From Chthoniobacteraceae bacterium (GTDB taxonomy: Bacteria; Verrucomicrobiota; Verrucomicrobiia; Chthoniobacterales; Chthoniobacteraceae), in contig CANJNZ010000009.1 in the NCBI GenBank assembly GCA_947476045.1, forward strand, positions 9,564 to 73,563: a stretch of 64,000 nucleotides of DNA, written 5' to 3'. Position 1 is the stretch's first letter. Each line of letters opens with the position of its first letter. Below are positions 621 through 49,783 of the stretch, one piece after another. A program made the position numbers and the translations under genes. The notes beneath the pieces were generated by a model, which was given only the letters and a program-made list of their open reading frames with translations, searched no databases and was not told the origin of the DNA.

Positions 621-719
621 ATAACAAGACTGTCTTGCTAGGATTGTTGCGCCGTGGGAAGACGGGGCTTCCATTTCCAGTAAAACAGAAAACTTCACAC
701 CCAAACCCGAACAAACATT

Positions 720-992: not shown

Positions 993-995
993 AGC

Positions 996-1514
996 ATGGC
1001 AACTCAAGCCAAAGTCACCTCGCTGGATGCACTGGAAACCTTCCGGGCCGCGCTGATCGTTTTTTTGACCAAGGCGCGCCGGGCACTGGATGAAGTGAGC
1101 GACGAAATCCGGCGCACAAGACAATGGCTGGAAAATGACCGGAGACCGCACTGGGAGGGGAAAATCCGAAAGCGGAGGCGCGCGCTGGAACAGGCGCAGC
1201 AGGAGTTGTTCAGCGCGAGGCTGTCGGAGTTTATGGAGGCGAGCACACGGCAACTCGCCGTGCGCAAGGCAAAGCTCGCGATGGCTGAAGCGGAGGAGAA
1301 ACTGCGCGCTGTGAAATTCTGGAATCAAAAATACGACAGCGCAGCCGACCCCCTTGTCAAGGGGATCGAGGGATTGCGTCATTTTCTCGAACACGACATG
1401 CCCGGCGCTGTCTCATATCTCGTGCAGGTCCAAAAGATTCTCGAATCATACACTGTGACCTCGCATTCCAACGCTGGCGGGCAGCCGGGCAACGAGGAGA
1501 TTTCAAATTCATGA
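996..1514 (+). CDS. helical protein (172 aa) with a central W-E-G motif; possible extended WXG100-like or accessory protein
   Basis: ATG at 996. Charged, heptad-like sequence. 'PH-W-E-G-K' lies at nt 1152-1160 between predicted helices. The stop overlaps the next start (ATGA at 1511-1514). Confidence 0.5.
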   Translation: MATQAKVTSLDALETFRAALIVFLTKARRALDEVSDEIRRTRQWLENDRRPHWEGKIRKRRRALEQAQQELFSARLSEFMEASTRQLAVRKAKLAMAEAEEKLRAVKFWNQKYDSAADPLVKGIEGLRHFLEHDMPGAVSYLVQVQKILESYTVTSHSNAGGQPGNEEISNS

Positions 1515-1723
1515 GCACCAAGGGCAGCGCCTCAAATTTAATACAGGCCATGAAAAACCTCTCAGCGGAATGGCAGCGGTTGAAAGAAGTCTGGCGTGAC
1601 GGGAAGAGCGTGGAGTTTGAACAGAAGTATCTTGATAATTTGCCCGGCGATGTTTCCCAGGCAATCGAGTCGATGGAGGAAGTGGATGCGCTTCTCAAGA
1701 AAGTGAGGGGAGACTGTGAGTAA
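1511..1723 (+). CDS. WXG100-like small helical protein (70 aa)
   Basis: 'EV-W-R-D-G-KSVEFEQKY' (W codon 1592-1594) parallels 'SS-W-Q-D-QEAEKFAEEF' in the 90-aa protein. There is an 8-nt overlap with the GTG start of the ATPase gene. Confidence 0.5.
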   Translation: MSTKGSASNLIQAMKNLSAEWQRLKEVWRDGKSVEFEQKYLDNLPGDVSQAIESMEEVDALLKKVRGDCE

Positions 1724-12910: not shown

Positions 12911-13819
12911 CTAGGACATTTTGACCTGAGATTTGATGATGAGGGTGAGTGCGCGGATAGCCAGTTCCTGAATATTGAAAGGCTTTGCGAGGAATTCGTT
13001 ACCACCGCGCAGGGATGATTCGATTCGATTTTCCTGCGAGGCATTTCCTGTGAGAAAGATGATGGGCGTCTCTGCGTGGAGAGCCATATTACGGATGTGC
13101 GTGCATAGCTCAAAGCCGTCCAGATCGGGCAGCTGCACATCAAGGATGATCAAGTCGTAGCGACTGCCCGAAAGCTCGGCGACTGCGGCACTGGGGTGCG
13201 TCGTAACCTTGCTCTTGAGGCCGACGCTTTTCAGCCCCTCCGTTATCATTTCGCTGACGGAACGATCGTCATCCACAGCGTAGATGCGGGCTGTTGCGAG
13301 TTTCACCCGGCGCTCCAGATCGCGCTCCTTGAGCAAGGCGGCGAGGAAGTCGATGGTTTGGTTCAGCGTGCGCAGCATCAGCGGAGTTATCTGCTCGGGA
13401 AGTTCATAAAGTTCCTGCAAGAGTGATGCGAAGGCGGCGCTCACACGATGCAGGACGCCCTGGCCGGATTTTCGGGCACGGTCTGCGAAGCTCTGGACCT
13501 GTGAGGAAAGTTCGTTGAGTTGACTCAAATCATCGGGCTTGCGGGAAAGCGCCTGAAAGCAATGACGCATTGCACCGATGGCGTTGCGTTCATTCTTGTC
13601 GGTCATTTTTTCGGCCAGCGAACTGGACTTCGCAGATTCCGCTTCGTCTGTTTGCATCTCATCTTCGGGGAGCAGATGCTCGTCCTCCACAGGCTGTGCC
13701 ACCGGCATGCTAACGGGCCGTGCACCGCGCTTGGCCATGATGCGGGCCTCAGCAAGGCTGGCACCCATTTCCCGAATCGTGCGCTGTGCGTTTTCCAGTT
13801 GCGAGGATACCTCGATCAT
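12911..13819 (-). CDS. response regulator with C-terminal receiver domain and an Hpt-like helical N-terminal region; probably the 3' part of a longer frameshifted gene
   Basis: Receiver motifs are 'VDDD', 'LIILDVQLPDLDG', 'IIFLTG' and 'LAKPF'. The helical region 'LHRVSAAFASLLQEL' is only tentatively Hpt-like. The reading frame stays open and coiled-coil-like for at least 50 codons upstream of the ATG. Confidence 0.8.
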   Translation of the reverse strand: MIEVSSQLENAQRTIREMGASLAEARIMAKRGARPVSMPVAQPVEDEHLLPEDEMQTDEAESAKSSSLAEKMTDKNERNAIGAMRHCFQALSRKPDDLSQLNELSSQVQSFADRARKSGQGVLHRVSAAFASLLQELYELPEQITPLMLRTLNQTIDFLAALLKERDLERRVKLATARIYAVDDDRSVSEMITEGLKSVGLKSKVTTHPSAAVAELSGSRYDLIILDVQLPDLDGFELCTHIRNMALHAETPIIFLTGNASQENRIESSLRGGNEFLAKPFNIQELAIRALTLIIKSQVKMS

Positions 13820-15567
13820 TTCCAGACGATGCGCTTCGTATTGCTTGAAAAACTGCTGGTGCTCCTCTGATTTGCCCTGCGCTTTTTCCAGTTCCTCTTT
13901 GAGCTGCGCGATTTCTGCACGACGCTCCTTGATCTGCGCGTCATATGCGATTGCGTTGCGCTGACATGCTTTTTCACGGTGTCCCGCTCGCGAATGATGT
14001 ATTCGATTTGCTTTTGTGCAGCGATCAATGAGTTCCGGGTATCTTCGAAGGCTTGTGAGTTTCCGCCATTCTCATGCTCGGCGAGTTCAGCCCTGAGTTC
14101 TGCTTCGGCCAGCCGAAGCTGGATTTCCTTATCCTTCTCCTCCATCGCGCTGACGACTTCGTTCAGCGTTTGAATCCGGTTTTCACGCTGCGCCAATTCC
14201 GCCTGAAACTGCTCGTTGGTAGAATTTGCGGACAACAGCGTGCTGCGGGATTCCTCATACTCCGCCTCACGTTCAAGAATGTGCTGGCGGGCGGCGTCAC
14301 GCTCTTTGGTGGCAACTTCGTTTTGCTGCTTTGAAAGAGCGAGTTGCGTTTCGTAAGCCTTTCGCAATTCGTCGAGTTTACTGCTGAATTCGCCAATTTC
14401 AGCCTCGCGCTCTTTGGAGAGTATGTCGATTTCTAGGCGTATTTCGTTAACCTCTGCTTCGTGTTCTTTGTTCGCCAAGTCCTGCGCTGCACGCAACGCC
14501 TTGAGTTCGGAGTTCAGACGCTCATCCACCTCGTTGTGTGTGGCGTTCTTTTTTTTCTGAACCTCCAGTTCAGCGGATAGCTCCTGAATCTTTTTTACCT
14601 GTTCGACATTGGTGCCGGTGGCTTCCTCGACCTGTTTTCGCAAGGCATTTGCTTCAGCCTCAATCTCCTTCAATTGCCCCAGACCGGCATCGCGCTCGCC
14701 GGCAGTCTGCTCCAGTTTTGCGCGCAGTTTCTCTAACTCTTCCGCAGCCTGCTTTGTCGCTTTGTCAGCGATTTCAAAATCGTATCCAAGATTTGCTATC
14801 TGATCTTCAAGCTCGCCGATGCGGTTTTTCAACTCCGCGACCTGTGTAGCCGAGGCATCACGAGCGAGCCGGAGTGCTGAGAATTGTTTCTGAATTTCAG
14901 CGTCTATCTTCTTGGCGTCGCCGGTATTCTTCTTTGCATTGAGAAGCGTCTTCTGCGCCTCCGCGAGCTGGCGATGACTCTCTTTGAGTTTTGCCAATGC
15001 CTCTTCCTTGTCCTTGTCCGCCAGATCACGCTGGCGCAGAATGGAGTCGCGCTGTTTCACCGTCTCATCTCGTGACGTTAAACAGTCCCTCAATTGCGCA
15101 CTTGTGTCGCTGTGAAGCTTTACTGTCTCCTCCCGCTGACGGAGGGCATCGAGTCGCTGGCGTTCGGCGGTTTCCAGTTTCTTTTTTAACTCACCGATGG
15201 TGGTCTCGTATTGTTGCTGTTGTTCGGAAAGGGTATCACACTCCCGTTCTAAAACATTGATTTTTCTTTCAAGTTCGAGTGCGGCATTTGCGCGATCAAG
15301 TGAACGTGTCAGTTCGTCAATTGCATGATTGCGCTCTTCCTCAGCTACTCGCTGCTTTGCGCGCGCTTCGTTCAGTGAATCCTGAAGCTGCTCGATGAAA
15401 TTACGAACCTCTTTCGTCGGATCTCGATCGGCGTTGGCTATATTTTCTGAACCTGATGGAAATGCGGGGCTGCGACGTTCTTCATCGCCTGTCGGAAAAC
15501 TGGAAATTTTTGCTGAATAATGGGCCATGTAGGACCACCTCAAACGGGTTGGCGCTTGAGTGGGCAT
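13816..15567 (-). CDS. long coiled-coil protein (583 aa as listed); the last 50 codons look out of frame
   Basis: About 480 aa of E/K/Q/L/R heptad-like sequence. The tail 'HVSATQSHMTRRSRS...' is R/S-rich and not coil-like. There is a 4-nt overlap with the downstream receiver ORF. Confidence 0.7.
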   Translation of the reverse strand: MPTQAPTRLRWSYMAHYSAKISSFPTGDEERRSPAFPSGSENIANADRDPTKEVRNFIEQLQDSLNEARAKQRVAEEERNHAIDELTRSLDRANAALELERKINVLERECDTLSEQQQQYETTIGELKKKLETAERQRLDALRQREETVKLHSDTSAQLRDCLTSRDETVKQRDSILRQRDLADKDKEEALAKLKESHRQLAEAQKTLLNAKKNTGDAKKIDAEIQKQFSALRLARDASATQVAELKNRIGELEDQIANLGYDFEIADKATKQAAEELEKLRAKLEQTAGERDAGLGQLKEIEAEANALRKQVEEATGTNVEQVKKIQELSAELEVQKKKNATHNEVDERLNSELKALRAAQDLANKEHEAEVNEIRLEIDILSKEREAEIGEFSSKLDELRKAYETQLALSKQQNEVATKERDAARQHILEREAEYEESRSTLLSANSTNEQFQAELAQRENRIQTLNEVVSAMEEKDKEIQLRLAEAELRAELAEHENGGNSQAFEDTRNSLIAAQKQIEYIIRERDTVKKHVSATQSHMTRRSRSVVQKSRSSKRNWKKRRANQRSTSSFSSNTKRIVWK

Positions 15568-20741: not shown

Positions 20742-21328
20742 ATACAGATTGGGAGAAACGCTACATCACCGGAGAGACGCCTTGGGAAAAGGGGGCGCCG
20801 CATCCCGCGCTGGTCGCATTCGTAAAGAGTGCGCCGGTGCGCGGCAGAGTCTTTGTCCCCGGCTGCGGGACCGGGCATGATGTGCGCGCACTCGCTGCAA
20901 CTGCGGATGAGGTTCTGGGCCTCGACATTGCGCCTTCCGCCATCGCTGCGGCGAAAAGTCAGCCGCAAATCGGTGGCGAACGCTTTATGCTCGGCGACCT
21001 TTTCGCGTTGCCTGCGGAGATGCGCGGTTATTTCGACTGGGTCGTGGAGCACACTTGCTTTTGCGCCATCCCTCCGTCGCTGCGCCCAAACTACGTGCGT
21101 GCCGTGGCGTCTGTGCTAAAAGCAGGCGGCCACTTACTGGCGGTATTTTATTTAACCCCGGATATGGAGCCGGGCGAATCCGGTCCGCCCTTCGGCGCGA
21201 CCGTCGCCGAACTGGACAAACTTTTCACCCCCTATTTCACCATGGAAAAAGAATGGAGCCCGCCCGCGACTCATGCAGGAAGGGAAGGTAGAGAACTCTG
21301 CCGACTGCTCGTGCGGTGCTCAGCGTAA
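20726..21328 (+). CDS. thiopurine S-methyltransferase (TPMT)-family SAM methyltransferase
   Basis: 'W..RY..GETPWE', 'VFVPGCGTGHDV' and 'VLGLDIAPSAI'. The start is either ATG 20726 or ATG 20738; the latter forms an ATGA overlap with the upstream stop. Confidence 0.7.
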   Translation: MATAMNTDWEKRYITGETPWEKGAPHPALVAFVKSAPVRGRVFVPGCGTGHDVRALAATADEVLGLDIAPSAIAAAKSQPQIGGERFMLGDLFALPAEMRGYFDWVVEHTCFCAIPPSLRPNYVRAVASVLKAGGHLLAVFYLTPDMEPGESGPPFGATVAELDKLFTPYFTMEKEWSPPATHAGREGRELCRLLVRCSA

Positions 21329-21329
21329 A

Positions 21330-21908
21330 CTACGCCGCCTTGGCTTTCACTTCGTGCCCAAGCATCTTCAACGCTTGTTCAAGCAGTTCGACTTCGAGAG
21401 GCTTCTTTAAAACGGTCACAGGTCCGTGCTTAAGAATGTTGTCGAGCATCTGACTGTCCGGGTAGCCGGTAATGATAATGATGGGCATCCCGGGATGCAG
21501 CGCCTTCGCTTGTTTGTAGATTTCATCCCCAGTGATGTCCGGTAATTGGAGGTCCAGGAAGCAAAGGTCGAATTTTTGTTTACTCAACGCGGCGAGGGCT
21601 TCTTTACCAGTGCCGACTACGATGCGGGTGAATCCCTGCTTTTTCAAAAAGAGCTTAAACATGCTCTGCAAGCCGATGTCATCGTCCACAACCAGAACGG
21701 TCGGCGCTCCGCCTTGCTCTCCTTCATTGCGAAGGACATCACGATCGAGCATGTCGCGTTTTACGCGCCAGCGTCCACCGATTTGGACTGCTGGAAGTTG
21801 TCCGCGCTGGACGAGGTAGTAAACCGTGGGCAACGGAATGCGCAGATAGGCTGCGGTTTCCTTCACGGTCATCAAGTTATGATCAGACATGGCGCTTTGG
21901 TTGGGCAT
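21330..21908 (-). CDS. DNA-binding response regulator with N-terminal excisionase/MerR-type HTH and C-terminal receiver
   Basis: HTH 'MTVKETAAYLRIPLPTVYYLVQRGQLPAVQIGGRWRV'. Receiver motifs 'LVVDDD', 'LCFLDLQLPDITG' and 'IIIITG'. The start is ATG 21908 or 21890. Confidence 0.8.
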   Translation of the reverse strand: MPNQSAMSDHNLMTVKETAAYLRIPLPTVYYLVQRGQLPAVQIGGRWRVKRDMLDRDVLRNEGEQGGAPTVLVVDDDIGLQSMFKLFLKKQGFTRIVVGTGKEALAALSKQKFDLCFLDLQLPDITGDEIYKQAKALHPGMPIIIITGYPDSQMLDNILKHGPVTVLKKPLEVELLEQALKMLGHEVKAKAA

Positions 21909-22006
21909 TTGAAAATAGCAGTTCAGCGCTTGCTGCGATCGGTGCGCAATTTGCCCAACTACCAGTGTGGTGTCAACGCGTGATTGTGGTATTTCTAGAT
22001 TCGGCG

Positions 22007-22753
22007 ATGGACATTGGGCTGGAGAAATTGGCAAGTGCCTCAATGTTAAGCGACTCTTCCTCTCTCACAGCCGTGCTCATTCCGCTCGGTCTCGATGCGC
22101 GCGCTTTCACCATTGATGGTGATTTTCCAAATCTCACAGCGCTGCGACTGGACCTCACCGGCGCACTTTTTCATCGCGGTTTGCGTCTTGCGGATGCGTC
22201 TGGCGTTCCAGCGTTCGTTGCACGCACAGTGGAGGCCCGTGCGGCCCCGGCGTATTTTGAGTCGTTGCCTTTCTCGATGTCGTTGCACGTTGAAGATGCG
22301 GTATTTTCATCCAAGGCCGCACTGATTCGCAGCGGCAAAGGCGCGCTGACGCTCTCAGCCACCATAGCCGACTTGGAAAAAACACTGCTCGATCTCGTGC
22401 GCACCGCAGCGGAAAAGCAGGGTGCGGAAGTGCAAAGTGTGCAACTCAACCTCCATGCAGAAAGCCCTCACGTGCTTGTTTTGCGGGCGACAGCCACGGC
22501 CAAGGCAATGTTTTTGACGGCCACACTCACGCTCAGCGGCCGCATAGAAATCACCGAAAAATTAGAAGCGCGGCTATGTGCGCTGTCGTGCGCCGGCGAT
22601 GGAATGATTGCAAATCTTGCAGTTGGCGCTTTGCGCCCGAAACTTGCCGCGATCGATGGGAAAACACTCGCGCTCCCCACGCTCGTCCCCTCGTTGCACA
22701 CACTCACACTCGACACAAAAGACGGGCTGCAACTTCGCGCCCTCTTTGGTTAA
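22007..22753 (+). CDS. hypothetical protein
   Basis: ORF with plausible coding composition but no motif I recognise. The start is uncertain (ATG 22007 or 22043). Confidence 0.4.
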   Translation: MDIGLEKLASASMLSDSSSLTAVLIPLGLDARAFTIDGDFPNLTALRLDLTGALFHRGLRLADASGVPAFVARTVEARAAPAYFESLPFSMSLHVEDAVFSSKAALIRSGKGALTLSATIADLEKTLLDLVRTAAEKQGAEVQSVQLNLHAESPHVLVLRATATAKAMFLTATLTLSGRIEITEKLEARLCALSCAGDGMIANLAVGALRPKLAAIDGKTLALPTLVPSLHTLTLDTKDGLQLRALFG

Positions 22754-22917
22754 ATGAACAAGCTGGTCTTTCATTTTGGAGCCGGACCTCAAAAAGAATT
22801 AGCTGAAAACTTTGTGAGCTTAGCAATTTTTACTTCCCATCTGAGCGCCCTTCGTAAAAAAGATGTCACTGATTTATTCCTGACGGAAAAAGCGTTTACC
22901 AATCTGCCCTAGGTGCC
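22754..22917 (+). promoter_or_regulatory. AT-richer intergenic region upstream of the pilus-like cluster (probable promoter/leader)
   Basis: 164-nt non-coding gap, visibly more AT-rich than its surroundings, immediately 5' of five co-oriented, tightly packed genes. No specific -35/-10 could be assigned. Confidence 0.3.
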
Positions 22918-23493
22918 ATGAAAATTTTCTCCACATTACTTGCTGCGGTTTCACTCTTCACAACTCCGCTGTTTGCTCAGGCGCCTGTTCCCATCACGGC
23001 GAAAAATGTGAAAATCGATAAAATCATGCCCTCGGTTATTACTACCCCGGAGTTCGTAATCAAAGGCACGACCGACAAGCGGGCTGAGTATCTCAAATGG
23101 TTTGAGATAGAAGTGGAGTTTGAAGTGGAAGGCGTCGAGATGGTGGATGAATTGACGTTCAAATACCTTGCCGAAATCAACGGTAAGTTGCTCCCCGGTG
23201 AAATCACACATGTGAACATCCCAAAAGGAAGGAACCATTTTTCCGTGATGTATATCTCCCCCCGCTCGCTGGACCGCTTGACGGACGGCAAGCAGCTGAA
23301 TCAAGGGATGATTGGCAACATTTGGATTGAAATCGAAAAACAGGGGCAGGTTCTTGCCAAAAAATCATCCCAACAGAAACCGCCGCCAAATTTACAACGT
23401 ATGAATGGTCTCATGGTGCCAAAATCTGAAACGCCCTTTCAGGTGCTGTGGTGGGATCGCTACGAAGCAGTCAAACCCGGCGTGAGCCGATAA
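22918..23493 (+). CDS. secreted protein, first gene of the pilus-like cluster (positional equivalent of Amuc_1102)
   Basis: Sec signal 'MKIFSTLLAAVSLFTTPLFAQA'. 191 aa. The call rests on position in the cluster only. Confidence 0.5.
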   Translation: MKIFSTLLAAVSLFTTPLFAQAPVPITAKNVKIDKIMPSVITTPEFVIKGTTDKRAEYLKWFEIEVEFEVEGVEMVDELTFKYLAEINGKLLPGEITHVNIPKGRNHFSVMYISPRSLDRLTDGKQLNQGMIGNIWIEIEKQGQVLAKKSSQQKPPPNLQRMNGLMVPKSETPFQVLWWDRYEAVKPGVSR

Positions 23494-23519
23494 TCTGGAA
23501 ATTTTTCGCAGGCAACCGA

Positions 23520-25232
23520 ATGGCCGCACCAAACAGCATCCTCGCCCTCAATCTCGGCACGCAGACTATCAGTCTGGCCGAGTTTCAAACGAACCCGAGC
23601 GGGGGCATTGTGCTTGTTCGTTACAAGCAGGCCGAAATTCTGGGCGACCCCGCAGCTGATGCTACACGCGTCGCACAGACCAAGCTGCAAATACAACAAT
23701 TAGTCGCGGAATTTGGACTGAAGAAACAGCGGGTAAACTACGCGATCGCTTCACATACGATTTTTACGCGCCCCGTAAGGCTGCCGGTCGTCGAAGACGC
23801 CTCGCAGGTGGAGCAGATCGTCGCTTTTGAAGCAGCGCAAAACGTCCCCTACCCGATTGATCAAGTCGTGTGGGACTGGCAACTCCTGGACGAGGGCAAG
23901 GGAGGGCAGATGGAAGTCATCCTCGCGGCCATCAAGTCGGACTTGCTCGATGACATCAATGACGCTGTGCAAAATGCCGGCCTGCGAACCAGCGTCGTCG
24001 AGATAGCGCCAATGGCCCTCTACAACGCGCTCCGCTATAATTACGCAGATGCGGACGGCTGCACCTTGTTGGTCGATATCGGTTCGCGCACGACGAACCT
24101 GCTCTTTTGCGAACCGGGTAAAATTTTTCCGAGACGCCTGAATATCGGCGGCAGCACAATCACTACTGCGATTGCGAAAGACTTTGGAATGTCTTTCACG
24201 GAGGCCGACAAGCGCAAGGCGGACGATGGTTTTGTGAGTTTGGGCGGCAGCTACGCGGAGCCCGACGATGCAGAAACGGCGCGCATCTCGAAAATCATCC
24301 GCAATCAAATGACGCGCCTGCATCAAGAAATTGCACGCAGCATCACCTTCTATCGCAGCGAGCATGGAGGCTCGCAGCCCGAGCGGGTGCTGCTTTCCGG
24401 CTGCACGGCCTCACTTCCTTACATGCGGGAGTTTTTCCAGGAAAAATTCCCAAGCATGGATGTGGAATACTTCAATCCTCTGCGCAATGTCTCCGTCTCC
24501 AGCACGCTTGATGTCGAGGAAGTCGGACGAACCGCGCACATGCTCGGCGAACTCGTAGGTCTCGCGCTGCGCGGAGCGGTAAGTTGCCCGATGGAACTGA
24601 ATCTCCGCCCGGCAAGCGTCACCACGGCAGACCGCACGGCAGCCCAGCGCCCGTTTCTCATCGCAGCAGGCGTGTGTGTTCTGACCATGCTCGCTGGCTG
24701 GTGGCAGTATTTTGAACGCGCTGCAGATACGGCAACAGAGGTCACCGAAAAGATAAGCGCTCAATCCCAGCCACTTGAAGCCGAGGAAGCCAAAATCAAA
24801 AGCGCTCTAGCGGATATCGACACGCTGAAAAACTCGGTCAAACCCCTGCAAAAGGCGATCGAAGAGCGGGAATACTGGGTCAAAGTCATCAGTGACATCG
24901 GCCAGCGACTGCCCAAAGACTACATTTGGATCACGTCCTTTGAGTTGCCGCCGAGGGAGGAAAAAGAAACGCCCAAGCAGCCTGAAAAAGGCAAGACCAA
25001 GGACACACCTCCAGTGATTCTGACAGTGAAAGGACTCTATCTCAGCAAGGATGCCGGGAATAATGAGCGCACAAAAATAGTGGACGAATTTCTCAAAAAT
25101 CTCGGCGATTCTCCGTATGTCGAACCACCCAAGGAAGAGGCGGAGATCATCCGGGGAAATGACGATACCGCGCACTGGGCATTCCCATACACATTCCCGC
25201 TCAAACTTAAAAAACCGATCGATTTGAAATGA
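23520..25232 (+). CDS. PilM-like actin-fold protein fused to a PilN-like transmembrane/coiled-coil segment (Amuc_1101-like)
   Basis: ATG at 23520. 'ILALNLGTQTISLAEF', 'LLVDIGSRTTNL' and 'VLLSGCTASLP' are actin/FtsA/PilM-type phosphate and adenosine motifs. The TM helix 'FLIAAGVCVLTMLAGWW' at aa ~395 is followed by ~170 further residues. Confidence 0.8.
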   Translation: MAAPNSILALNLGTQTISLAEFQTNPSGGIVLVRYKQAEILGDPAADATRVAQTKLQIQQLVAEFGLKKQRVNYAIASHTIFTRPVRLPVVEDASQVEQIVAFEAAQNVPYPIDQVVWDWQLLDEGKGGQMEVILAAIKSDLLDDINDAVQNAGLRTSVVEIAPMALYNALRYNYADADGCTLLVDIGSRTTNLLFCEPGKIFPRRLNIGGSTITTAIAKDFGMSFTEADKRKADDGFVSLGGSYAEPDDAETARISKIIRNQMTRLHQEIARSITFYRSEHGGSQPERVLLSGCTASLPYMREFFQEKFPSMDVEYFNPLRNVSVSSTLDVEEVGRTAHMLGELVGLALRGAVSCPMELNLRPASVTTADRTAAQRPFLIAAGVCVLTMLAGWWQYFERAADTATEVTEKISAQSQPLEAEEAKIKSALADIDTLKNSVKPLQKAIEEREYWVKVISDIGQRLPKDYIWITSFELPPREEKETPKQPEKGKTKDTPPVILTVKGLYLSKDAGNNERTKIVDEFLKNLGDSPYVEPPKEEAEIIRGNDDTAHWAFPYTFPLKLKKPIDLK

Positions 25233-26185
25233 GCTGGCTTTCCAAAAATAAATTTCTTGCTGGATTTGGTGCCGCGATGCTTCTAGGCGTTGGCGGACTG
25301 GGCTACCTCACCTACTCCGCTATGGATCGCAGCAGCTCTGCAGAAAGCGATTTCGAAGGCGCACTCGCAAAACTAAAAGGTCTGCAGGATGGACACCCCT
25401 ATCCCGAAAAAGGAAACCGGGAGAAACTCGTCGCGCAAAAAGACGCACTGAACGAAAAAATCGCCTCGTTTCAAAAACAGCTCGCGGATTCCGTTCTGCC
25501 TGTCGAGCCTCTGACTCCCACCGACTTCCAAGACAAACTCAAGGAAACCGTCGCCCGGGTCACTGCCAAAGCCGGAGGTGATGCGCACCTCAAACTGCCG
25601 GACAAATTTTACATGGGCTTTCCGGAATATTCGAGCAAACCGCCGGAGAAGGCAGCAGCAGCCTTGCTTGGCCGCGAACTCGTCGCATTTGAATCGATCA
25701 TCAATCTCATGCTCGCCGCCAAGGACGTGGAGCTTAAGGAATTTTCCCGTGAAGAATTAAAAGAGGAAAAGGACAACGAAAAGCCAAAGCCAGGAGCGAA
25801 GAAAAGCGCGCAAACCGAACGGAAACTTGTTCAACACTCAGGTTTCACGGTGAAGTTTGAATCAAGCGATGCAGCGTTTCGCACCATCTTAAACGGCATC
25901 GTTGGGAACAAAGAGCAATTCTATATCGTCCGGAGGATCAAGGTGAACAGCACCATGACGCAAGCCCCTCAAAAAGCGAACAGCCCCGCCCCAAACACAC
26001 CCTCCACAAATCCATCCACCCCTGCTCCAGGCCCCGCCGTTCCTCCGCCACAAGCCCCGTCGCAACGTCTCGAATACATATTTGGAACAGAACGTGTGGA
26101 TGTCGCCTTGGAAATAGAAATGGTGGACTTCGCAAAGCCCGAAGCGCCCGTTAAATCCGTAAAAAAAGAGAAGGAGGACAAGTGA
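25229..26185 (+). CDS. Amuc_1100-family pilus-like protein (PilO-position bitopic membrane protein)
   Basis: 318 aa. N-terminal anchor 'FLAGFGAAMLLGVGGLGYL', a helical region, a P/A/S/T-rich linker and a C-terminal beta segment. Length, architecture and several short stretches (for example 'TPTDFQDKLKE', 'FYIVRRIKV') resemble my memory of Akkermansia Amuc_1100. There is an ATGA overlap with the upstream gene. Confidence 0.6.
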   Translation: MSWLSKNKFLAGFGAAMLLGVGGLGYLTYSAMDRSSSAESDFEGALAKLKGLQDGHPYPEKGNREKLVAQKDALNEKIASFQKQLADSVLPVEPLTPTDFQDKLKETVARVTAKAGGDAHLKLPDKFYMGFPEYSSKPPEKAAAALLGRELVAFESIINLMLAAKDVELKEFSREELKEEKDNEKPKPGAKKSAQTERKLVQHSGFTVKFESSDAAFRTILNGIVGNKEQFYIVRRIKVNSTMTQAPQKANSPAPNTPSTNPSTPAPGPAVPPPQAPSQRLEYIFGTERVDVALEIEMVDFAKPEAPVKSVKKEKEDK

Positions 26186-26188
26186 GCC

Positions 26189-27259
26189 ATGGAATGGATT
26201 AAGAAAAACCCGGCCCAACTGATTCTTGCGCTCGTCGCCGCAGGTTCCCTCGCCTCTGCCATCCTGCTTTACACAAAAGAGGATGACTTCAAGAATGCTT
26301 TCAACGCATTCAACGTCTCGCCCAACAAGGACAATAAAATCCCAAACCTCCATGTTGAGAATATCACGGCAGCCGAGAAAGCGATTAGCACACCGGCGCT
26401 CTGGAGTCCTGGAAACAACAAAGATACAGCCGCTCTTTTCGTCCCCAAAAAATACGTCTTGAAAGACGGCGCTCTCGTCAGGCCGATGAACTGGACTTTC
26501 AACCCTCCCGTTCCCAACGCATGGCTCGAAAAATACGGCTTCGACTACCTCAATCCTGGACTGCTCGACGAGGATCCTGACAAAGATGGATTCAGCACTC
26601 TCCTGGAGTTCAAGGGACTCGACGCACAGTCGCACCTCGATATGGCGGGCCAGTCAGTGCTTGGCAAAGACGGCAAAGCGCTGACCGATGATTCGACCGA
26701 CCCGACCGATCCAAAATCGCATCCTCCTTACCACACACGTCTCTCGCTCAAAAAAATCGAGTTAATCCCTTTCCGCCTTCGATTCATGACCTATGACACC
26801 AATAGAGCAGGCAGGGTCGATAGCGTGCAGATCAATACACTGGATCGCGGAAACAAATCCATGTTCGTCACGCTCGGCGAAGACATACCCGGCACACGTT
26901 TCAAGACATTGACCTTCGAGAAAAAAGAAGTGCCCGATGTTGACAACACAAAGAAAGACGTTTCCGAACTCACCATCATCAACAACGAAACAAAGGAAAC
27001 TCTCGTTCTCGTCCTCGGCATCGTGCGCGACTCGCCCGAGAGTTACATCGTCCTCCAATATCACTGGGTGGGTGCAGACGGACAAAAGACGCCCGACATG
27101 AATTTGAAGAAAGGAATCACATTCAAGCTTCCCCCCGACAATGACAGCACCTACAAGGTCATTGACATCAAAGCACCCGATCCGCAAAAGGGCCAACTTG
27201 GAGAAGCAAAAATTCAGATCCCCAACGGGGAAACGATCACCTTGCACACTTCAAAGTAA
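26189..27259 (+). CDS. membrane-anchored pilus-like system protein (Amuc_1099-position, PilP-position)
   Basis: N-terminal anchor 'LILALVAAGSLASAILLY'. A thrombospondin-type-3-like acidic motif 'DEDPDKDGFS'. 356 aa, with a 3-nt gap from the upstream gene. Confidence 0.5.
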   Translation: MEWIKKNPAQLILALVAAGSLASAILLYTKEDDFKNAFNAFNVSPNKDNKIPNLHVENITAAEKAISTPALWSPGNNKDTAALFVPKKYVLKDGALVRPMNWTFNPPVPNAWLEKYGFDYLNPGLLDEDPDKDGFSTLLEFKGLDAQSHLDMAGQSVLGKDGKALTDDSTDPTDPKSHPPYHTRLSLKKIELIPFRLRFMTYDTNRAGRVDSVQINTLDRGNKSMFVTLGEDIPGTRFKTLTFEKKEVPDVDNTKKDVSELTIINNETKETLVLVLGIVRDSPESYIVLQYHWVGADGQKTPDMNLKKGITFKLPPDNDSTYKVIDIKAPDPQKGQLGEAKIQIPNGETITLHTSK

Positions 27260-27334
27260 CCCCCGGCGCTAGAAAACTCCTCAGTTCACAGCCAACCAAC
27301 AAACACTTTAAACCGAAATAACCAACACACGCCC

Positions 27335-29953
27335 ATGACACGGCCGCCTCTCGCTGCACCCATCGCCTCGCTCCTCATTGCCAGTTTTATGTTTCCGCCC
27401 ACCATCACGTGGGGGCAGGAACTCTCCGGTGATTCCGCTGAAGCCGCAGCCACACGCGCACTGGCGCGCCTGCAGCAACGCGAGCAGCTCGGAAAAGATG
27501 AGACTGCAAAGGGCGAGGAATCGCTTGCGAAAAAAGATTACGAAGACGCTTTTGCTCATTTCAAAAATGCCTGCGAGGCCATCATCGTAGCCCCGGCCAC
27601 AAGCTCCAGCCGGCGTTCCGCTGTGAACGGACTCACCACAGCAGGACGCAGACTTGCAGAACAGCGCGTTACCGAAGGCTACTACGCAAGCGCCGTGCAG
27701 GCACTTCAGGTCGTCCTCATTCATAATCCCGACGACAAAGGAACCCTCACACTGCTGGCCAATATTGAAGCACCCGATTACTTCAACAAGCAGATGACCC
27801 CCGGCCATCGCGCCAACATTGAGAAGGTGAAAGCCCTCTTCATCGCCGCCGATGGCTACAAGCAACTTGGTCGTTACGAACTTGCTCTGCAAAAATACGA
27901 GGAAGTCCTCAATATCGACCCCAACAACTCAGCCGCCCGCCAGGGTCGTGCTGAAGTGTATATTTTAAAAACCCGGCCTACCGTTGACGCTTATAACGCA
28001 ACTCGCTCTCAAGCCATGTATGAGGTGAGCAAAGAATGGGAGCGCCCTTATCGCCGCTTTGACCGCAAATCGGTTGTTCGCAATACCGAAGGAAAGTCAA
28101 CCGCGCCCAGCACGGTCGGCATTACCAGAAAACTCAATGGAATCGTTTTGCCTAAAGTTGACTTCAAGGAATCCACGGTTCGCGAGGCAATCGATTTCCT
28201 CGTCAAAAAATCGAAGGACCTCGATCCGGAAAGCGTCGGCGTCAACATCGTCCTCAAACTAGATGAGCAAGGCGGAACCGTCGCGCCGCCTCCAGCCGCA
28301 GCAGCCGGTGGTGCGATTCCCGGTCTTGGCCTTGATCCCGTCGCGCCCGTAGCGGCCGCTGCTCCAGTGATAACAGGCGGCGCAGGCACCCGCGTGACTC
28401 TTACCCTCAACAATGTCCCCCTCATTGAGGTCATCAAATACATCACCAACCTCGCCAATCTCAAATTCAAGATCGAGCCGTTCGCCGTCTCGATTGTTCC
28501 TCTGGGCACGGACACTTCCGAAATGTTCATCAAGGAATGGAAAGTCTCCCCCATCATGTTCCGCGAAGCCATGGGTGCTGCAGCAGGCGGGCTCGCTGCT
28601 GAGCCCGCAGCTGCCCCGGCAGATCCCAATGCCTCATCTCTTGCTGGCAACTCATCTGCAAAAGACTTCCTGGCCCAGCGTGGCGTGACCTTTGGAGCAG
28701 GAGCTTTTGCTATGTATAGTCCGGCCAGTTCCACGCTGGTTGTAAAAAATACCTCCGAGCAACTCGACCTCGTCGAGCGCGTCGTCGAAATCCAAGGCGA
28801 ATCCACCGCTGTCAAGCAGATCGAAATTCAAGCGAAGTTCGTCGAAATCACCCAGAATAACCTAAAGGAACTCAGTTTCGACTGGCTGCTCGGGCAGGCG
28901 AACCTCCCCGGCTCCAAAAACTATCCACTCTTTTTCGGAGGAGGAAATGGCGCCCCTGCATCTACAGACTTCACCTTTAACAATGGTGGAGTCCCCGTTG
29001 GCGGAAGCCCGGTGACGGGTGGGAATCGCAGCGGCAGCATGGCGATCAGTGCCAGCGCCATAGACGCCCTGTTGTTTGGCAGTGCCGGCGGATCCCGGCT
29101 CGCGCCCGGCATCGCATCCATCGCAGGCGTCGGCACCGACCCGGTCTTCCAGTTGATGATTCGCGGCCTCGATCAAAAGAAAGGTGTGGATCTGCTCTCC
29201 TCTCCTCGCGTCACTACCAAAAGCGGCAACCGCGCGGTCATCGAAATCATTCGTGAATTCCGTTACGCAACAGAATTCCAGGCTCCGCAGATCCCGCAAA
29301 CTGTCGGGCAGCAGGGCGGTGGTATTTTGGGCGGCGGCGGCGGCGCCGGCTTCCTCGGCGGCGGCGGCGGCGGCTTCCCGGTCACTCCCACCACTCCAAC
29401 AAGCTTTGAAACCCGCAACGTCGGCGTGACTCTCGAAGTCGAACCCGTCATCGGGCCGGATGGATATACCATCGACATGCAGCTTGCTCCGCAGGTCACT
29501 GAATTCGAAGGATTCATCAACTACGGAAGCCCGATTCAGAGCCAGTCCACCAACCCGATCACAGGTCAGACGACGACCAACGTCATCACGCCAAACGTCA
29601 TCAACCAGCCTATCTTCAGCACGCGCAAGGTGACTACGAACGTCAGCGTGTATGATGGCGCGACTGTTGTCTTAGGCGGTCTCGTCCGCGAAGACGTGCA
29701 GAAGGTCGAGGATAAAACGCCGATCATTGGTGACATCCCGCTTCTTGGACGTTTGTTCCGCTCCAATGTGGATTCACACATCAAGCGTAACCTCGTAATT
29801 TTTGTTACCGCTAGAATCGTGAACGCAGAAGGCCAGCCCATCGTAAACGACGACGAGAAAGAGGAGAAAGTGGAAGACCTGCCACTCCCCGAAATCACGC
29901 CGCCTGCGCTGCCAGACATCAGCGCCTTCACAGGCAACGGCCTCAAGAAGTAG
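27335..29953 (+). CDS. secretin (type II/III secretion system family, PilQ/GspD-like) with N-terminal TPR region
   Basis: C-terminal secretin signature 'VVLGGL....V.....PIIGDIPLLGRLFRS' with 'LVIFVTARIV'. N-terminal TPR-like repeats ('GYKQLGRYELALQKYEEVLNIDPNN'). Ala/Gly/Pro-rich linkers. Confidence 0.85.
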   Translation: MTRPPLAAPIASLLIASFMFPPTITWGQELSGDSAEAAATRALARLQQREQLGKDETAKGEESLAKKDYEDAFAHFKNACEAIIVAPATSSSRRSAVNGLTTAGRRLAEQRVTEGYYASAVQALQVVLIHNPDDKGTLTLLANIEAPDYFNKQMTPGHRANIEKVKALFIAADGYKQLGRYELALQKYEEVLNIDPNNSAARQGRAEVYILKTRPTVDAYNATRSQAMYEVSKEWERPYRRFDRKSVVRNTEGKSTAPSTVGITRKLNGIVLPKVDFKESTVREAIDFLVKKSKDLDPESVGVNIVLKLDEQGGTVAPPPAAAAGGAIPGLGLDPVAPVAAAAPVITGGAGTRVTLTLNNVPLIEVIKYITNLANLKFKIEPFAVSIVPLGTDTSEMFIKEWKVSPIMFREAMGAAAGGLAAEPAAAPADPNASSLAGNSSAKDFLAQRGVTFGAGAFAMYSPASSTLVVKNTSEQLDLVERVVEIQGESTAVKQIEIQAKFVEITQNNLKELSFDWLLGQANLPGSKNYPLFFGGGNGAPASTDFTFNNGGVPVGGSPVTGGNRSGSMAISASAIDALLFGSAGGSRLAPGIASIAGVGTDPVFQLMIRGLDQKKGVDLLSSPRVTTKSGNRAVIEIIREFRYATEFQAPQIPQTVGQQGGGILGGGGGAGFLGGGGGGFPVTPTTPTSFETRNVGVTLEVEPVIGPDGYTIDMQLAPQVTEFEGFINYGSPIQSQSTNPITGQTTTNVITPNVINQPIFSTRKVTTNVSVYDGATVVLGGLVREDVQKVEDKTPIIGDIPLLGRLFRSNVDSHIKRNLVIFVTARIVNAEGQPIVNDDEKEEKVEDLPLPEITPPALPDISAFTGNGLKK

Positions 29954-29955
29954 CC

Positions 29956-30558
29956 GTGCCAGTCATCGGCCTCACGGGTGGCATCGCAACTGGCAAAAGC
30001 ACTTTTGCCAGCGCGCTGCTCCGGGAGTTGCCGATGGGGCATTTTGATTCCGACCGCTGCGTGCACGACCTGCTCGCCGCAGACAATCAGATACGCGACT
30101 CCATAGTAGCCGCTTTCGGCCCATCCGTCTGCGATCAGGCAGGGCGGCCCGAGCGAACCGCACTGCGAAACATCATTTTTAACGACGAAAAACGGCGCAG
30201 AACGCTGGAAAGCATCCTGCACCCGGCCGTCCACGCCCAGTGGAAGGCACTCGCCGAAGAAGCCCGACGCCGGGAAACATGGTTGCTAGTGGACATCCCA
30301 CTGCTCTATGAAACCCAAGCCGAAGGTGAATTTGACCGCGTTATCGTGGTCGCCAGCTCAAAAAAAACTCAAATCGAACGCCTGACACAAGAACGCAGGC
30401 TTGCACCTGAGTTGGCAGAAAAGATAATCGCCTCACAGTTCGACCTCGAGGCGAAGACACAGAAAGCAGAACACGTAATTTGGAATGACAGCACCCGCCG
30501 AAACCTTGACGGACAAGCCCGACTCCTTGCCGATTGGCTCAGAGTCCGCTTCTCCTGA
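29956..30558 (+). CDS. coaE: dephospho-CoA kinase
   Basis: 'VIGLTGGIATGKST' P-loop. 200 aa. The GTG start lies 2 nt after the secretin stop. Confidence 0.9.
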   Translation: MPVIGLTGGIATGKSTFASALLRELPMGHFDSDRCVHDLLAADNQIRDSIVAAFGPSVCDQAGRPERTALRNIIFNDEKRRRTLESILHPAVHAQWKALAEEARRRETWLLVDIPLLYETQAEGEFDRVIVVASSKKTQIERLTQERRLAPELAEKIIASQFDLEAKTQKAEHVIWNDSTRRNLDGQARLLADWLRVRFS

Positions 30559-31993
30559 ACCCATCGCACCTGCGACAGAAGCGCCTGCTTCTCCCGCAGA
30601 AAATCCGCCTGCCGCCACGGCAGAGCAGGCCACAGCCGAAGCAACTTCGCCAGCAGCAGAGTCTCCGACACCTGCGGAAGCACCCAAGCAACCGGAGCCC
30701 GCGCCCATTCCGCCGGAACTCCAGCCGCGCGACTTGTGGATTGATGAACTTCATTCCCTCACCGTCCTGGAACTGCACGAGCGACTGGAAAAACTCCGCG
30801 TTCGCATCAACCCCGAAAAGAACCGCCACCTCCTCGTCTGTGACCTTCTCCGTGCGTATCACTCGCTCGGTTTTCGTCTGCTGGCGGAAGGCATCACCGA
30901 GTTCATCACGAACGACGGTTGTGGCTACGTGCGCTTCCCACGTTACAGCTTCCGTCCGGGGCCGCAGGATCCATTTATCCCTTTCCAAATTGCCCGCCGC
31001 TTGAGAATTCGCGGAGGCCATTTGGTCACCGTCCGCTTCCGTCCGCCAGGCCACAAGGACAAGCATATGATGCTTGAGGAAGTCCTCACCATCGAAGGCA
31101 TCCCGTTCAACGAATGGCAGCCGCCGAAGGATTTCGACACGCTCACAGCACGCTTCCCCGATGCCCGCATCCGCCTCGAAGGCGAGGGCGGCAGCAACGT
31201 CACCGCACGGGCTGTGGATCTCATCGCGCCCATCGGTCGCGGCCAGCGCGGTCTTCTCGTCGCATCACCTCGCGCCGGCAAGACGATCGTGATGAAGGAA
31301 CTCGCCAAAGCCGCGCTCGCAAACAACCCAGGACTCCACGTCATCATGCTGCTCGTGGATGAGCGTCCCGAGGAAGTCACCGACCTCATGCGCAGCGTTC
31401 GCGGAGCGGAAATTTACAGTTCCACTTTCGACGAGCCGAGCATTCGCCACATCCAGGTCGCGGATATCGTCGCCGATCGCGCCAAGCGCCTCGTCGAGCA
31501 GGGTAAACACGTCCTCATCTTCCTCGATTCCATCACCCGCCTCTCGCGCGGCTACAACAACGCACAGCCCGGCAAAGGCCGCATCATGACCGGCGGTCTC
31601 GACACCAAGGCTCTCGTGAAACCGAAAAAGTTTTTCGGCAGCGCGCGCAATACCGAGGAAGCCGGCAGCCTCACCATCCTCGCCACCGCGCTCGTGGACA
31701 CCCACAGCCGCATGGACGAAATCATCTTCGAGGAATACAAAGGCACCGGCAACATGGAGGTGAAATTGGATCGCTTCCTCTCCGAGCGCCGCATTTTCCC
31801 AGCGATAGACCTCCTGCAAAGCGCCACCCGCCGCGACGAACTCCTCTACCACCCCGACGAGTATCACCGTATCACCGTCCTCCGCAAACAGCTCGCCATG
31901 CTCCCGCCCGCCGAGGCGACCGAAGTCCTCATCCACGCCCTCAAAGCAACCACCAGCAACGCCTCGCTGCTCATGGGAGGACTCCGTGGTTGA
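30485..31993 (+). CDS. rho: transcription termination factor Rho (with a possible P/A/E-rich N-terminal extension)
   Basis: 'IAPIGRGQRGLLVASPRAGKT' Walker A, 'MLLVDERPEEV' and an RNA-binding domain 'GCGYVRFP'. The ATG at 30485 overlaps coaE by 74 nt. An in-frame TTG at 30734 is an alternative start. Confidence 0.9.
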   Translation: MTAPAETLTDKPDSLPIGSESASPEPIAPATEAPASPAENPPAATAEQATAEATSPAAESPTPAEAPKQPEPAPIPPELQPRDLWIDELHSLTVLELHERLEKLRVRINPEKNRHLLVCDLLRAYHSLGFRLLAEGITEFITNDGCGYVRFPRYSFRPGPQDPFIPFQIARRLRIRGGHLVTVRFRPPGHKDKHMMLEEVLTIEGIPFNEWQPPKDFDTLTARFPDARIRLEGEGGSNVTARAVDLIAPIGRGQRGLLVASPRAGKTIVMKELAKAALANNPGLHVIMLLVDERPEEVTDLMRSVRGAEIYSSTFDEPSIRHIQVADIVADRAKRLVEQGKHVLIFLDSITRLSRGYNNAQPGKGRIMTGGLDTKALVKPKKFFGSARNTEEAGSLTILATALVDTHSRMDEIIFEEYKGTGNMEVKLDRFLSERRIFPAIDLLQSATRRDELLYHPDEYHRITVLRKQLAMLPPAEATEVLIHALKATTSNASLLMGGLRG

Positions 31994-33092
31994 AAAACCA
32001 AGTCAACTGCGCGACGGACATTCACCCTCTCAAATGGTCCCGTTGACCGACACCGCCTCCGGCCTCGCCGACGCGCTGCCCGCCATCGCAGCGCAGCAGC
32101 GCATCGCCGTGGATACCGAGGCCGACTCGCTCCACTGCTATTTCGAAAAACTCTGCCTCATCCAAATCACAGTTCCAGGTCATGACTTCCTCATTGATCC
32201 GCTCGCTGGTTTCGACCTCACACCACTTTGGGAGTCATGGTCGGGGAAAGAACTCATCTTCCACGGAGCAGACTACGATCTCCGCCTGCTCCGCCGCACC
32301 GGCTGCCCAAGACCCGCACGCATTTTCGACACAATGATCGCCGCACGGCTCTGCGGGCTGAAGGAATTCAGCTATGCGGCGCTGATGGAAAAATACTTCC
32401 AGCTTCCCATCGCCAAGGCATCGCAAAAAGCAAACTGGGCGCGCCGTCCGCTTTCGCCGCAGATGATGGAATACGCAGTCAACGACACGCGTCACCTCGC
32501 CGGGCTCGCCGACATTTTGAGCGCTGAACTGGACCGGCAAAATCGCCGCGTGTGGTTCGACCAGCTCTGCGACCGCGCCATTCGCTCCGCTGAAGTGGAC
32601 AAGGAAATTGACCCCGACCAGCTCTGGCGTGTCCCCGGCAGTGGCCACCTTCGCGGGCGCGCAGCGGCAATCTTCCGCGAGCTGTGGAAATGGCGCGATG
32701 AAGAAGCCCGCCGCCTCGACAAACCCACATTCCACATCTGCAACAGCGACCTCCTCGTGCAAGCGGCAGTCGCTTTTGACGCAGGCGAAACTTTTGAAAT
32801 CCGCCACCTGCGCGGTCCGCGCGAAGCAAAGTATTTTGCAGCAGCCCAGCGCGGAGTTGAACTACCCGAATCCGAGTGGCCGAAATTTATCCGGGCACCG
32901 CGCCTCCGCCCGACCACAGCGCAGTTGAAACGTTTCGACGAGCTGAAGAGCCTCCGCGACAAAGCCGCCGCTGAGCATCATCTCGATCCCTCGCTCATTG
33001 CCCCGAAAGCCACCTTGGAAGGTCTGGCATTCCGCCCGGAGGAGACTCAGGCAAAACTATTGCCCTGGCAGCGTGAACTGATGGGCCTTTAG
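31986..33092 (+). CDS. rnd: ribonuclease D (DEDDy 3'-5' exonuclease plus HRDC)
   Basis: 'IAVDTEADSL', 'HGADYDLRLL' and 'YAVNDTRHL' are Exo I-III motifs. The start is GTG 31986 (overlapping the rho stop) or ATG 32034. Confidence 0.85.
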   Translation: MVEKPSQLRDGHSPSQMVPLTDTASGLADALPAIAAQQRIAVDTEADSLHCYFEKLCLIQITVPGHDFLIDPLAGFDLTPLWESWSGKELIFHGADYDLRLLRRTGCPRPARIFDTMIAARLCGLKEFSYAALMEKYFQLPIAKASQKANWARRPLSPQMMEYAVNDTRHLAGLADILSAELDRQNRRVWFDQLCDRAIRSAEVDKEIDPDQLWRVPGSGHLRGRAAAIFRELWKWRDEEARRLDKPTFHICNSDLLVQAAVAFDAGETFEIRHLRGPREAKYFAAAQRGVELPESEWPKFIRAPRLRPTTAQLKRFDELKSLRDKAAAEHHLDPSLIAPKATLEGLAFRPEETQAKLLPWQRELMGL

Positions 33093-39845: not shown

Positions 39846-39923
39846 TTACGCTCTGCGCCGCCGCAATCCTAGCAACAGGCCGAGGCCGCCGAGCAGCGAC
39901 ACCGCCGCGCCGGGCTCGGGCAC
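39846..39923 (-). other. PEP-CTERM sorting signal coding segment
   Basis: VPEP motif, then the hydrophobic stretch 'GAAVSLLGGLGLLLGL', then RRRR and the stop. Confidence 0.9.
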
Positions 39924-49705: not shown

Positions 49706-49783
49706 CTACTTCCGGCGACGGCGGGCACCGAGGAGCAGGCCGAGGCCGCCGAGCAGCGAAACTGCTGCACCGGGCTCGGGCAC
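49706..49783 (-). other. PEP-CTERM sorting signal coding segment
   Basis: VPEP, a hydrophobic helix, RRRRK and the stop. Nearly identical at the amino-acid level to the 39846-39923 segment. Confidence 0.9.

Follow-up and report, generated by a model that had tools for sequence, protein, structure and literature searches.

A Chthoniobacterales version of the Akkermansia Amuc_1098-1102 (MUL2) locus, encoding a probable natural PilM-PilN fusion within a proposed type IV pilus-like module

Identification of the locus

Five co-oriented genes on the forward (+) strand of a 64-kb stretch of a GC-rich Chthoniobacterales metagenome-assembled genome (MAG), lying at positions 22918-29953 of that stretch (hereafter the window, to which all coordinates refer), are the Chthoniobacterales version, from a soil or freshwater bacterium, of the Amuc_1098-1102, or MUL2, locus of the gut bacterium Akkermansia muciniphila. 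They probably encode an envelope-spanning module of the type IV pilus-like kind, inherited vertically. The Akkermansia cluster was defined by Ottman et al. (2017), its products being abundant in envelope fractions, and later work names it MUL2 and describes it as important for mucin acquisition in A. muciniphila. The locus described here is an ordinary member of this known and already annotated system, as MUL2 outside Akkermansia is represented both in the databases and in the survey of Wilkie et al. (2026). That study reported conserved MUL2 synteny in aquatic Akkermansiaceae and most other Verrucomicrobiales, and at least three of the genes in 97 of 235 Chthoniobacterales genomes, with the system absent from the methanotrophic order. 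An earlier reading of the window from its letters alone (the original prediction) had held that a homologue outside Akkermansia bears on what the system does natively; such a homologue is not new, given these reports. What the present analysis adds is modest, consisting of the apparent universality of the locus among the sampled Chthoniobacterales loci, the fusion of PilM and PilN in a single protein, and an argument for inner-membrane anchoring.

The open reading frames (ORFs), with their coordinates and junctions, are exactly as originally predicted, both in the ORF list and in the DNA itself. The top NCBIfam families of the five proteins are, in order, Amuc_1102 to Amuc_1098, with four of the five above the curated cut-off, which bears out the proposed identity and order of the cluster. 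The leading 191-aa protein (22918-23493) scores 101 bits against NF042424 (Amuc_1102; cut-off 55), matches the Amuc_1102 structure 7DSZ among PDB sequences (E = 3.9e-11), and Pfam PF28178 (Amuc_1102) is already on record for the identical public gene. The 570-aa protein (23520-25232) scores 633.7 bits against NF045709 (Amuc_1101; cut-off 650, E = 4e-190), with positions 1-487 of the 608 in the profile aligned. The 318-aa protein at 25229-26185 aligns over its full length to NF038287 (Amuc_1100) at 229.5 bits (cut-off 180), is 25% identical to Amuc_1100 by BLASTP (E = 5e-10), and has an identical public gene for which Pfam PF28028 (Amuc_1100) is on record. Used as a single sequence, it finds the solved Amuc_1100 entries 6KNY, 6LAD and 6LAF at E ~1e-12, and a 27-member family profile matches the same entries nearly full length at E = 7e-32; judged from sequence, it is a homologue of Amuc_1100 that takes the place of PilO in the gene order, as had been suspected. 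The 356-aa protein (26189-27259) scores 154 bits against NF042425 (Amuc_1099; cut-off 50), and the 872-aa protein (27335-29953) 807.9 bits against NF042912 (Amuc_1098; cut-off 750). Our local copy of Pfam detects only PilM_2, Secretin and TPR in the five. The architectures originally described also hold, comprising a Sec signal, a PilM domain with a transmembrane (TM) and helical tail, two bitopic proteins, an acidic motif and a secretin with tetratricopeptide repeats (TPR).

The genes are closely packed. The first ends with TAA at 23493 and the second starts with ATG at 23520, although its longest ORF begins at GTG 23448; the public gene calls take the ATG. The second and third genes share a 4-nt ATGA overlap (25229-25232), and gaps of 3 nt (26186-26188) and 75 nt (27260-27334) precede the fourth and fifth. 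Public calls on identical contigs give the same five genes of 191, 570, 318, 356 and 872 aa. More than 20 independent public contigs carry genes identical to these, and the 318-aa protein recurs unchanged in assemblies from NCBI, ENA and Logan, one of them being MAG GCA_947471895.1.

Conservation and synteny

Related loci were sought with the family alignment in a single genome of each GTDB species, and 132 were confirmed; the best 80 of these (L005-L084) were examined, their gene order being read by tblastn with all window proteins as far as each contig reached. Almost all 80 are labelled Chthoniobacterales, Chthoniobacteraceae or Spartobacteria, among them Chthoniobacter flavus Ellin428. The order 1102>1101>1100>1099>1098 was found in 80 of 80, wherever the contig allowed, and the Amuc_1102-like gene always heads the operon. 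The similarity to Amuc_1100 and this conservation of order uphold the original prediction on both points at which it could have been refuted. A search of 1.84 billion cluster representatives (50% identity) with the family profile gave 2743 matches at E <= 1e-3, including 562 at E <= 1e-30.

The secretin gene is followed by two synteny markers, coaE (29956-30558, +; dephospho-CoA kinase, Pfam CoaE on record), to which no functional part is assigned, and rho (30734-31993, +; Pfam Rho_RNA_bind and ATP-synt_ab on record). These follow the cluster in approximately 60 of the 80 related loci, and Wilkie et al. (2026) likewise describe a synteny of secretin, dephospho-CoA kinase and rho. Further conserved neighbours are a UDP-sugar epimerase/decarboxylase-like gene, dehydroquinase and RNase D. 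The housekeeping flanks suggest that the locus is old and vertically inherited, and, with only a mild drop in GC content (0.53 versus ~0.58), they led to the rejection of a mobile island. Divergence is uneven: the nearest loci are ~60-62% identical in the Amuc_1100-like protein and 97-98% in Rho, and in the most distant the PilM-like protein and secretin retain ~45-47% identity and the Amuc_1100-like and Amuc_1099-like proteins ~27-30%.

The locus looks universal and complete in the sampled Chthoniobacterales loci. The published count of 97 in 235 genomes probably under-detects divergent members, because a name-based InterProScan survey is likely to miss the fast-evolving 1099, 1100 and 1102 proteins. 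A chance or decayed arrangement without function has next to no prospect of being correct. The one observation in its favour is that promoter and terminator signals do not rise above background, and it is refuted by five intact frames, four family hidden Markov models above their cut-offs, an order invariant across 80 genomes at protein identities down to ~27%, and recurrence on the public contigs mentioned above.

A probable natural PilM-PilN fusion

The second protein of the cluster is probably a natural PilM-PilN fusion, which keeps an INLLP-like motif at its junction and has the layout of GspL. Its PilM actin-like domain, approximately residues 1-352, is recognised by the generic pilM model TIGR01175 (149.6 bits, above the cut-off of 133) and by Pfam PilM_2 (PF11104, 123 bits). 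A Foldseek search with its AlphaFold 2 (AF2) model (predicted local distance difference test score, pLDDT, 73.6) retrieved PilM of Pseudomonas aeruginosa (5EOX, E = 3e-28) and of Thermus thermophilus (2YCH, TM-score 0.84), and also matched 3JC8 from Myxococcus xanthus. Beyond residue 352, secondary structure assignment of the model with DSSP gives a short linker, a continuous helix at residues 365-462 that contains the hydrophobic TM segment (379-398), and a small beta-beta-alpha-beta-beta domain; from the TM segment onwards this is the PilN/GspL-like periplasmic part, encoded at 24654-25229 (+).

The junction supports a fusion. When aligned by phmmer to 5EOU, an engineered chimera of PilM with residues 1-12 of PilN, the protein passes straight across the chimera junction, GLALRGAVSCPM-ELNLRP in the window being paired with GLALRSFDSSGMARINLLP in 5EOU. 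By this alignment, the motif CPMELNLRP (residues 356-364; 24585-24611, +) corresponds to the INLLP motif at the N-terminus of PilN, which binds PilM. Residues C356, P357, E359, L360, L362 and P364 are invariant across 33 homologues, and an ELNLxP-type motif is found in at least 68 of 81 loci. The tail is likewise general, the median length of homologues being 578 aa, and since the NF045709 profile is itself 608 positions long it is a family trait. The divergence of its end, where the profile leaves the last ~80 residues unaligned, accounts for the score falling short of the Amuc_1101 cut-off. The PilM-like protein is the best conserved component, at ~45-85% identity across related loci. Pfam PilN (PF05137) gave no match to the tail, with or without the junction, at E <= 10, and hhalign of the tail against the Amuc_1100-family alignment paired the TM segments only, with 6% probability.

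The same protein raises the question of whether the module is instead a type II secretion-like or uptake conduit, in which the part of GspL would be taken by the fusion, that of GspM by the Amuc_1100-like protein, that of GspC by the 356-aa protein and that of GspD by the secretin. With a short pseudopilus whose genes lie elsewhere, such a conduit would secrete enzymes that degrade glycans, or else take in glycan fragments. The fusion shares with GspL a single-chain layout in which a TM segment links a cytoplasmic actin-like domain to a periplasmic ferredoxin-like domain, and Foldseek also matches the GspL cytoplasmic domain 4PHT (E = 2e-9). The cytoplasmic domain of the fusion is, however, clearly closer to PilM than to GspL, as the pilM cut-off is passed, no Gsp cut-off is reached and 5EOX is the far stronger structural match. 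The INLLP-like PilN motif is moreover a type IV pilus feature, and the genes follow the pilM-N-O-P-Q rather than the gsp order, with no linked GspE, GspF or GspG-K genes. Taking these points with those from the 356-aa protein and the secretin given below, we consider a type II-like conduit unlikely.

Third and fourth proteins: the PilO and PilP positions

The third and fourth proteins each have a single N-terminal hydrophobic segment. The Amuc_1100-like protein comprises a conserved N-terminal peptide, a 21-residue Gly-rich TM segment (residues 9-29), a coiled-coil region and an alpha/beta core that is interrupted by a Pro-rich linker (246-279). Neither the protein itself (E <= 10) nor its 27-sequence profile matched PilO (PF04350), and among PDB sequences the family profile found only Amuc_1100, with no PilO, PilN or GspM. 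The link to PilO would instead come by way of the published Amuc_1100 crystal structures, in which two alpha-beta-beta motifs resemble those of PilO and PilN of the type IV pilus and of type II secretion proteins. The PilO placement of the original prediction holds by gene position and, through Amuc_1100, may hold by fold; it found no counterpart at the level of PilO sequence.

The 356-aa protein consists of an N-terminal peptide, a TM segment (residues 11-28), two acidic DxDxDG-type loops (127-141 and 167-175) and a beta-rich C-terminal region (185-354). The first loop is the acidic motif DEDPDKDGFSTLLEF, in which D129, D131, D133, G134, F135 and E140 are invariant in an alignment of 55 homologues; the family profile gives a weak EF-hand match at positions 109-140 (E = 0.05). 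It has no Pfam match, including to PilP and GspC/L/M at E <= 10, and no solved relative among PDB sequences. Its AF2 model (pLDDT 84.8), again beta-rich in the C-terminal half, had no PDB match at E < 1e-3 by Foldseek, and PilP and GspC were absent from the top 50, in a search with the whole chain that could miss a weak domain-level match. Beta-propeller and elongation factor P-like matches were spurious (TM-score <= 0.15). Its PilP role is positional only, and the analogy of the cluster with pilM-N-O-P-Q, as first drawn, gains support for PilM, PilN and PilQ, from the match to 5EOX, the INLLP-like motif and the secretin, and none for PilP from this search. The protein lacks a lipobox, an N-terminal TM segment standing in its place; this would suit the bitopic GspC of a type II-like conduit better than the lipoprotein PilP, but no match to the GspC HR domain was found in the whole-chain search.

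In both proteins the extreme N-terminus is unusually well conserved, as computed across 70-74 genomes. No ten-residue block of the Amuc_1100-like protein is better conserved than its first ten residues (0.79 versus a mean of 0.48; consensus MNWIKENKFL), and in the Amuc_1099-like protein the equivalent block ranks second (0.74 versus 0.50; consensus MDWIKKNYDQ). By contrast, the cleaved-type signal peptide of the Amuc_1102-like protein is conserved only weakly (0.46). These peptides and the long Gly-rich hydrophobic segments suggest that the two proteins are uncleaved inner-membrane anchors, rather than bearers of cleaved signals, and that their short peptides on the cytoplasmic side may serve in binding; these peptides could dock onto the cytoplasmic PilM domain. 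The peptides encoded at 25229-25258 and 26189-26218 also resemble one another (M-[SN]-W-I-x-E-N-K-F-L and M-[DE]-W-I-K-K-N/H-x-x-Q), in proteins that are otherwise fast-evolving.

The TPR-secretin and the Amuc_1102-like protein

The last gene of the cluster encodes a signal peptide, TPR at approximately residues 147-210, a Gly-rich insert (661-681) and a secretin domain (687-829). Pfam Secretin (PF00263) matches at 110.9 bits, and TPR_2, TPR_19 and TPR_11 are matched too. Models for GspD, PilQ and MshL also match, all below their cut-offs; the GspD score (128 bits) exceeds that of PilQ (TIGR02515, 109.6 bits, cut-off 284), a further point in favour of a type II-like conduit, as are the literature reports that associate MUL2 with mucin or fucoidan accumulating inside the cell.

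The Amuc_1102-like protein begins with a Sec/signal peptidase I-type signal at residues 1-22, MKIFSTLLAAVSLFTTPLFAQA. All 75 homologues inspected have a Sec-type signal and none a class III signal. The Pfam scan at E <= 10 found no PilN, PilO, PilP or GspC/L/M in this protein, and an apparently stronger match to a Crov588 repeat protein was spurious, consisting of ten domains of which none was individually significant. Its Akkermansia relative has been called MUL2A and is said to resemble an archaeal pilin; in published modelling it forms a homotrimer and is treated as pilin-like. Once exported by Sec, the protein of the window would work in the periplasm or traverse the secretin.

Pilin, ATPase and platform genes

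The original prediction stressed that pilin, ATPase and platform genes are missing. They are indeed absent from the window, in which a regular expression for the class III signal (G-F-T-L-x-E) found nothing, whether in the five proteins, as predicted, or elsewhere. Pfam-annotated public gene calls covering the window include no T2SSE, T2SSF, N_methyl or prepilin peptidase, and no PilB/GspE-type Walker A motif was found in the window or within 10 kb either side of the 80 related loci (1.47 Mb). The significance of this was nevertheless overstated, as operons of the pilMNOPQ type normally lack these genes: P. aeruginosa has its pilMNOPQ at a different place from pilA-pilBCD and pilTU, and separation of this kind is the rule in model organisms. 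One related locus (L047) does have prepilin-like genes nearby, with two ORFs at 696-2240 (+) of that locus bearing G-F-T-L-L-E class III-type N-termini, ~3-4.5 kb upstream of the Amuc_1102-like gene.

Taken at face value, the absence would fit a self-contained, pilin-less machine, in which the Amuc_1102-like protein is the fibre subunit or a cargo, assembled in or pushed through the secretin. Such a machine would also explain why that gene always comes first in the operon, and it accords with the homotrimer model and the pilin-like treatment of Amuc_1102. However, the cytoplasmic PilM domain, which in type IVa pili couples to the cytoplasmic motor and platform, has been kept and is the best conserved part of the system. 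The Amuc_1102-like protein, moreover, lacks the hydrophobic N-terminal helix through which type IV pilins polymerise, and the scattering of pilus genes in model organisms offers a ready account of the missing partners. In A. muciniphila itself, according to a recent preprint, pilus genes lie at other loci (Amuc_1523-24, Amuc_1583, Amuc_0394 and Amuc_0745), and pilus and pseudopilus genes located elsewhere are needed for colonisation. A pilin-less machine is accordingly given little credence here.

Comparison with known systems

The closest counterpart is the MUL2 locus of Akkermansia, with which the cluster shares the same five families, order, orientation and downstream coaE-rho pair, as well as protein architectures that extend to the tail of the PilM-like protein and the Pro-rich linker of the Amuc_1100 homologue. 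It differs in its host, which lies outside the Akkermansiaceae, in the divergence of its Amuc_1100 homologue (~25% identity) and of the PilM-like protein, which lies 16 bits under the equivalog cut-off with its last ~80 residues unaligned, and in the unannotated 248-aa gene and response regulator directly upstream in its closest relatives. Neither mucin nor a host is expected to be involved here.

Similarly, the cluster resembles the type IVa PilMNOPQ operons of P. aeruginosa, M. xanthus and T. thermophilus in having the functional positions in the same gene order, and in possessing a PilM fold, a PilN-type INLLP-like motif, a TM segment, a coiled coil and a secretin; like that of P. aeruginosa, it stands apart from pilin, ATPase and platform genes. 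By contrast, PilM and PilN are here joined in a single chain, sequence similarity to PilO or PilP could not be detected for the proteins that occupy those two positions, and the one in the PilP position is TM-anchored with calcium-type acidic loops instead of being a lipoprotein. The secretin has N-terminal TPR, and an additional Sec-exported protein of the Amuc_1102 family leads the operon. The resemblance to type II secretion consists in the GspL layout of the fusion, the bitopic form that the 356-aa protein shares with GspC and the match of GspD models to the secretin domain.

Proposed function

The most likely mechanism is that of a type IV pilus-like alignment module and secretin spanning the envelope. 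The PilM-PilN fusion and the Amuc_1100-like protein would form an inner-membrane alignment pair, and the bitopic 356-aa protein, with its calcium-type loops and beta-rich C-terminal region, may bridge to the secretin in the manner of PilP or GspC. Genes for pilins or pseudopilins, prepilin peptidase, a PilB/PilT-type ATPase and a PilC platform would lie in other parts of the genome. Natively, the module probably serves to attach to complex glycans and to capture them or take them up, and not to signal to a host, by analogy with mucin acquisition through MUL2 in A. muciniphila and with marine Akkermansiaceae; glycan attachment and uptake is also the role of MUL2 proposed by Wilkie et al. (2026).

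Several points weigh against this interpretation. Within 10 kb of the related loci, prepilin-like genes occur in only 1 of 80 and a PilB-type Walker A motif in none. The PilM-like protein narrowly misses its equivalog cut-off, no sequence profile ties its tail to PilN or the 318-aa protein to PilO, and the 356-aa protein has neither a structural match to PilP or GspC nor a profile link to PilP. The glycan-capture function is an extrapolation from distant relatives, at ~25% identity. Furthermore, work on Akkermansia assigns Amuc_1100 to the outer membrane or the cell surface and describes a canonical signal sequence, which conflicts with the inner-membrane anchoring proposed above.

Two further readings, related to one another, were assigned a low probability. 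In the first, the module would be a pilin-independent conduit: the PilM-PilN fusion, Amuc_1100-like and Amuc_1099-like proteins could gate the TPR-secretin, the latter two docking through their near-invariant N-terminal M-x-W-I-K-x-N peptides, and the Amuc_1102-like protein could be extruded or cycled for the capture and import of glycans with neither a type IV pilin nor a PilB motor. The second, a weaker corollary but the likelier of the pair, is that the Amuc_1100 family is natively an inner-membrane PilO-type scaffold, rather than the outer-membrane pilus protein described in the probiotic literature.

The preferred interpretation, of a type IV pilus-like module, bears on Amuc_1100 because that protein is heavily studied as a host-active protein and a probiotic or postbiotic candidate. 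Its place within an ancient envelope machine of free-living Verrucomicrobiota implies that its activity on TLR2 is a by-product and not its native role. This point is already in print, through the work on MUL2 including that of Wilkie et al. (2026), and is implicit in the NCBI and Pfam models; the window provides one more example.

Surrounding DNA

The largest non-coding gap adjoining the cluster is the 164-nt intergenic region at 22754-22917 (+), which presumably contains the promoter. A sigma-70 consensus scan gave no match there, promoter and terminator matches across the whole region were no more numerous than in shuffled sequence, and Rfam had no match in 21000-32500. A 52-aa ORF called within this intergenic region in one assembly is not pilin-like.

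Directly upstream of the gap, a 248-aa protein with no family match is encoded at 22007-22753 (+), divergently from a response regulator at 21330-21872 (-), whose N-terminal domain is a DNA-binding one of the excisionase/HTH_17 kind. The pair adjoins the cluster only in the closest relatives (L005-L007), and could serve the operon as a regulator or accessory gene specific to the lineage. The 248-aa gene was set aside as a sixth component, being kept in only ~20 of the closest genomes and lacking a family match; the Pfam scan at E <= 10 gave no PilN, PilO, PilP or GspC/L/M match for its product.

Elsewhere in the window, a type VII secretion-like pair, here in a verrucomicrobial MAG, extends over 720-5579 (+), with a sigma-54-type response regulator just upstream. 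Its members are a WXG100-like protein of 90 aa (720-992, +), for which Pfam WXG100 is on record and TIGR03930 reaches 33 bits, below its cut-off, and a 1287-aa FtsK/SpoIIIE ATPase (1716-5579, +), whose EccC/EssC-type domain matches are far below the equivalog cut-offs; between them are two small unannotated ORFs at 996-1514 and 1511-1723. At 12911-15528 (-), the gene for a 570-aa coiled-coil protein, which has only weak SMC/Rad50-like matches and belongs to no Pfam family, is translationally coupled with one for a 302-aa response-regulator protein. Finally, a 3190-aa protein at 39846-49418 (-), for which Pfam PATR (autotransporter-associated beta-strand repeat) is on record, is adjoined by a giant protein of at least 4759 aa (49706-63985, -), whose gene has an unusually high GC content at third codon positions (0.78) and runs off the window.

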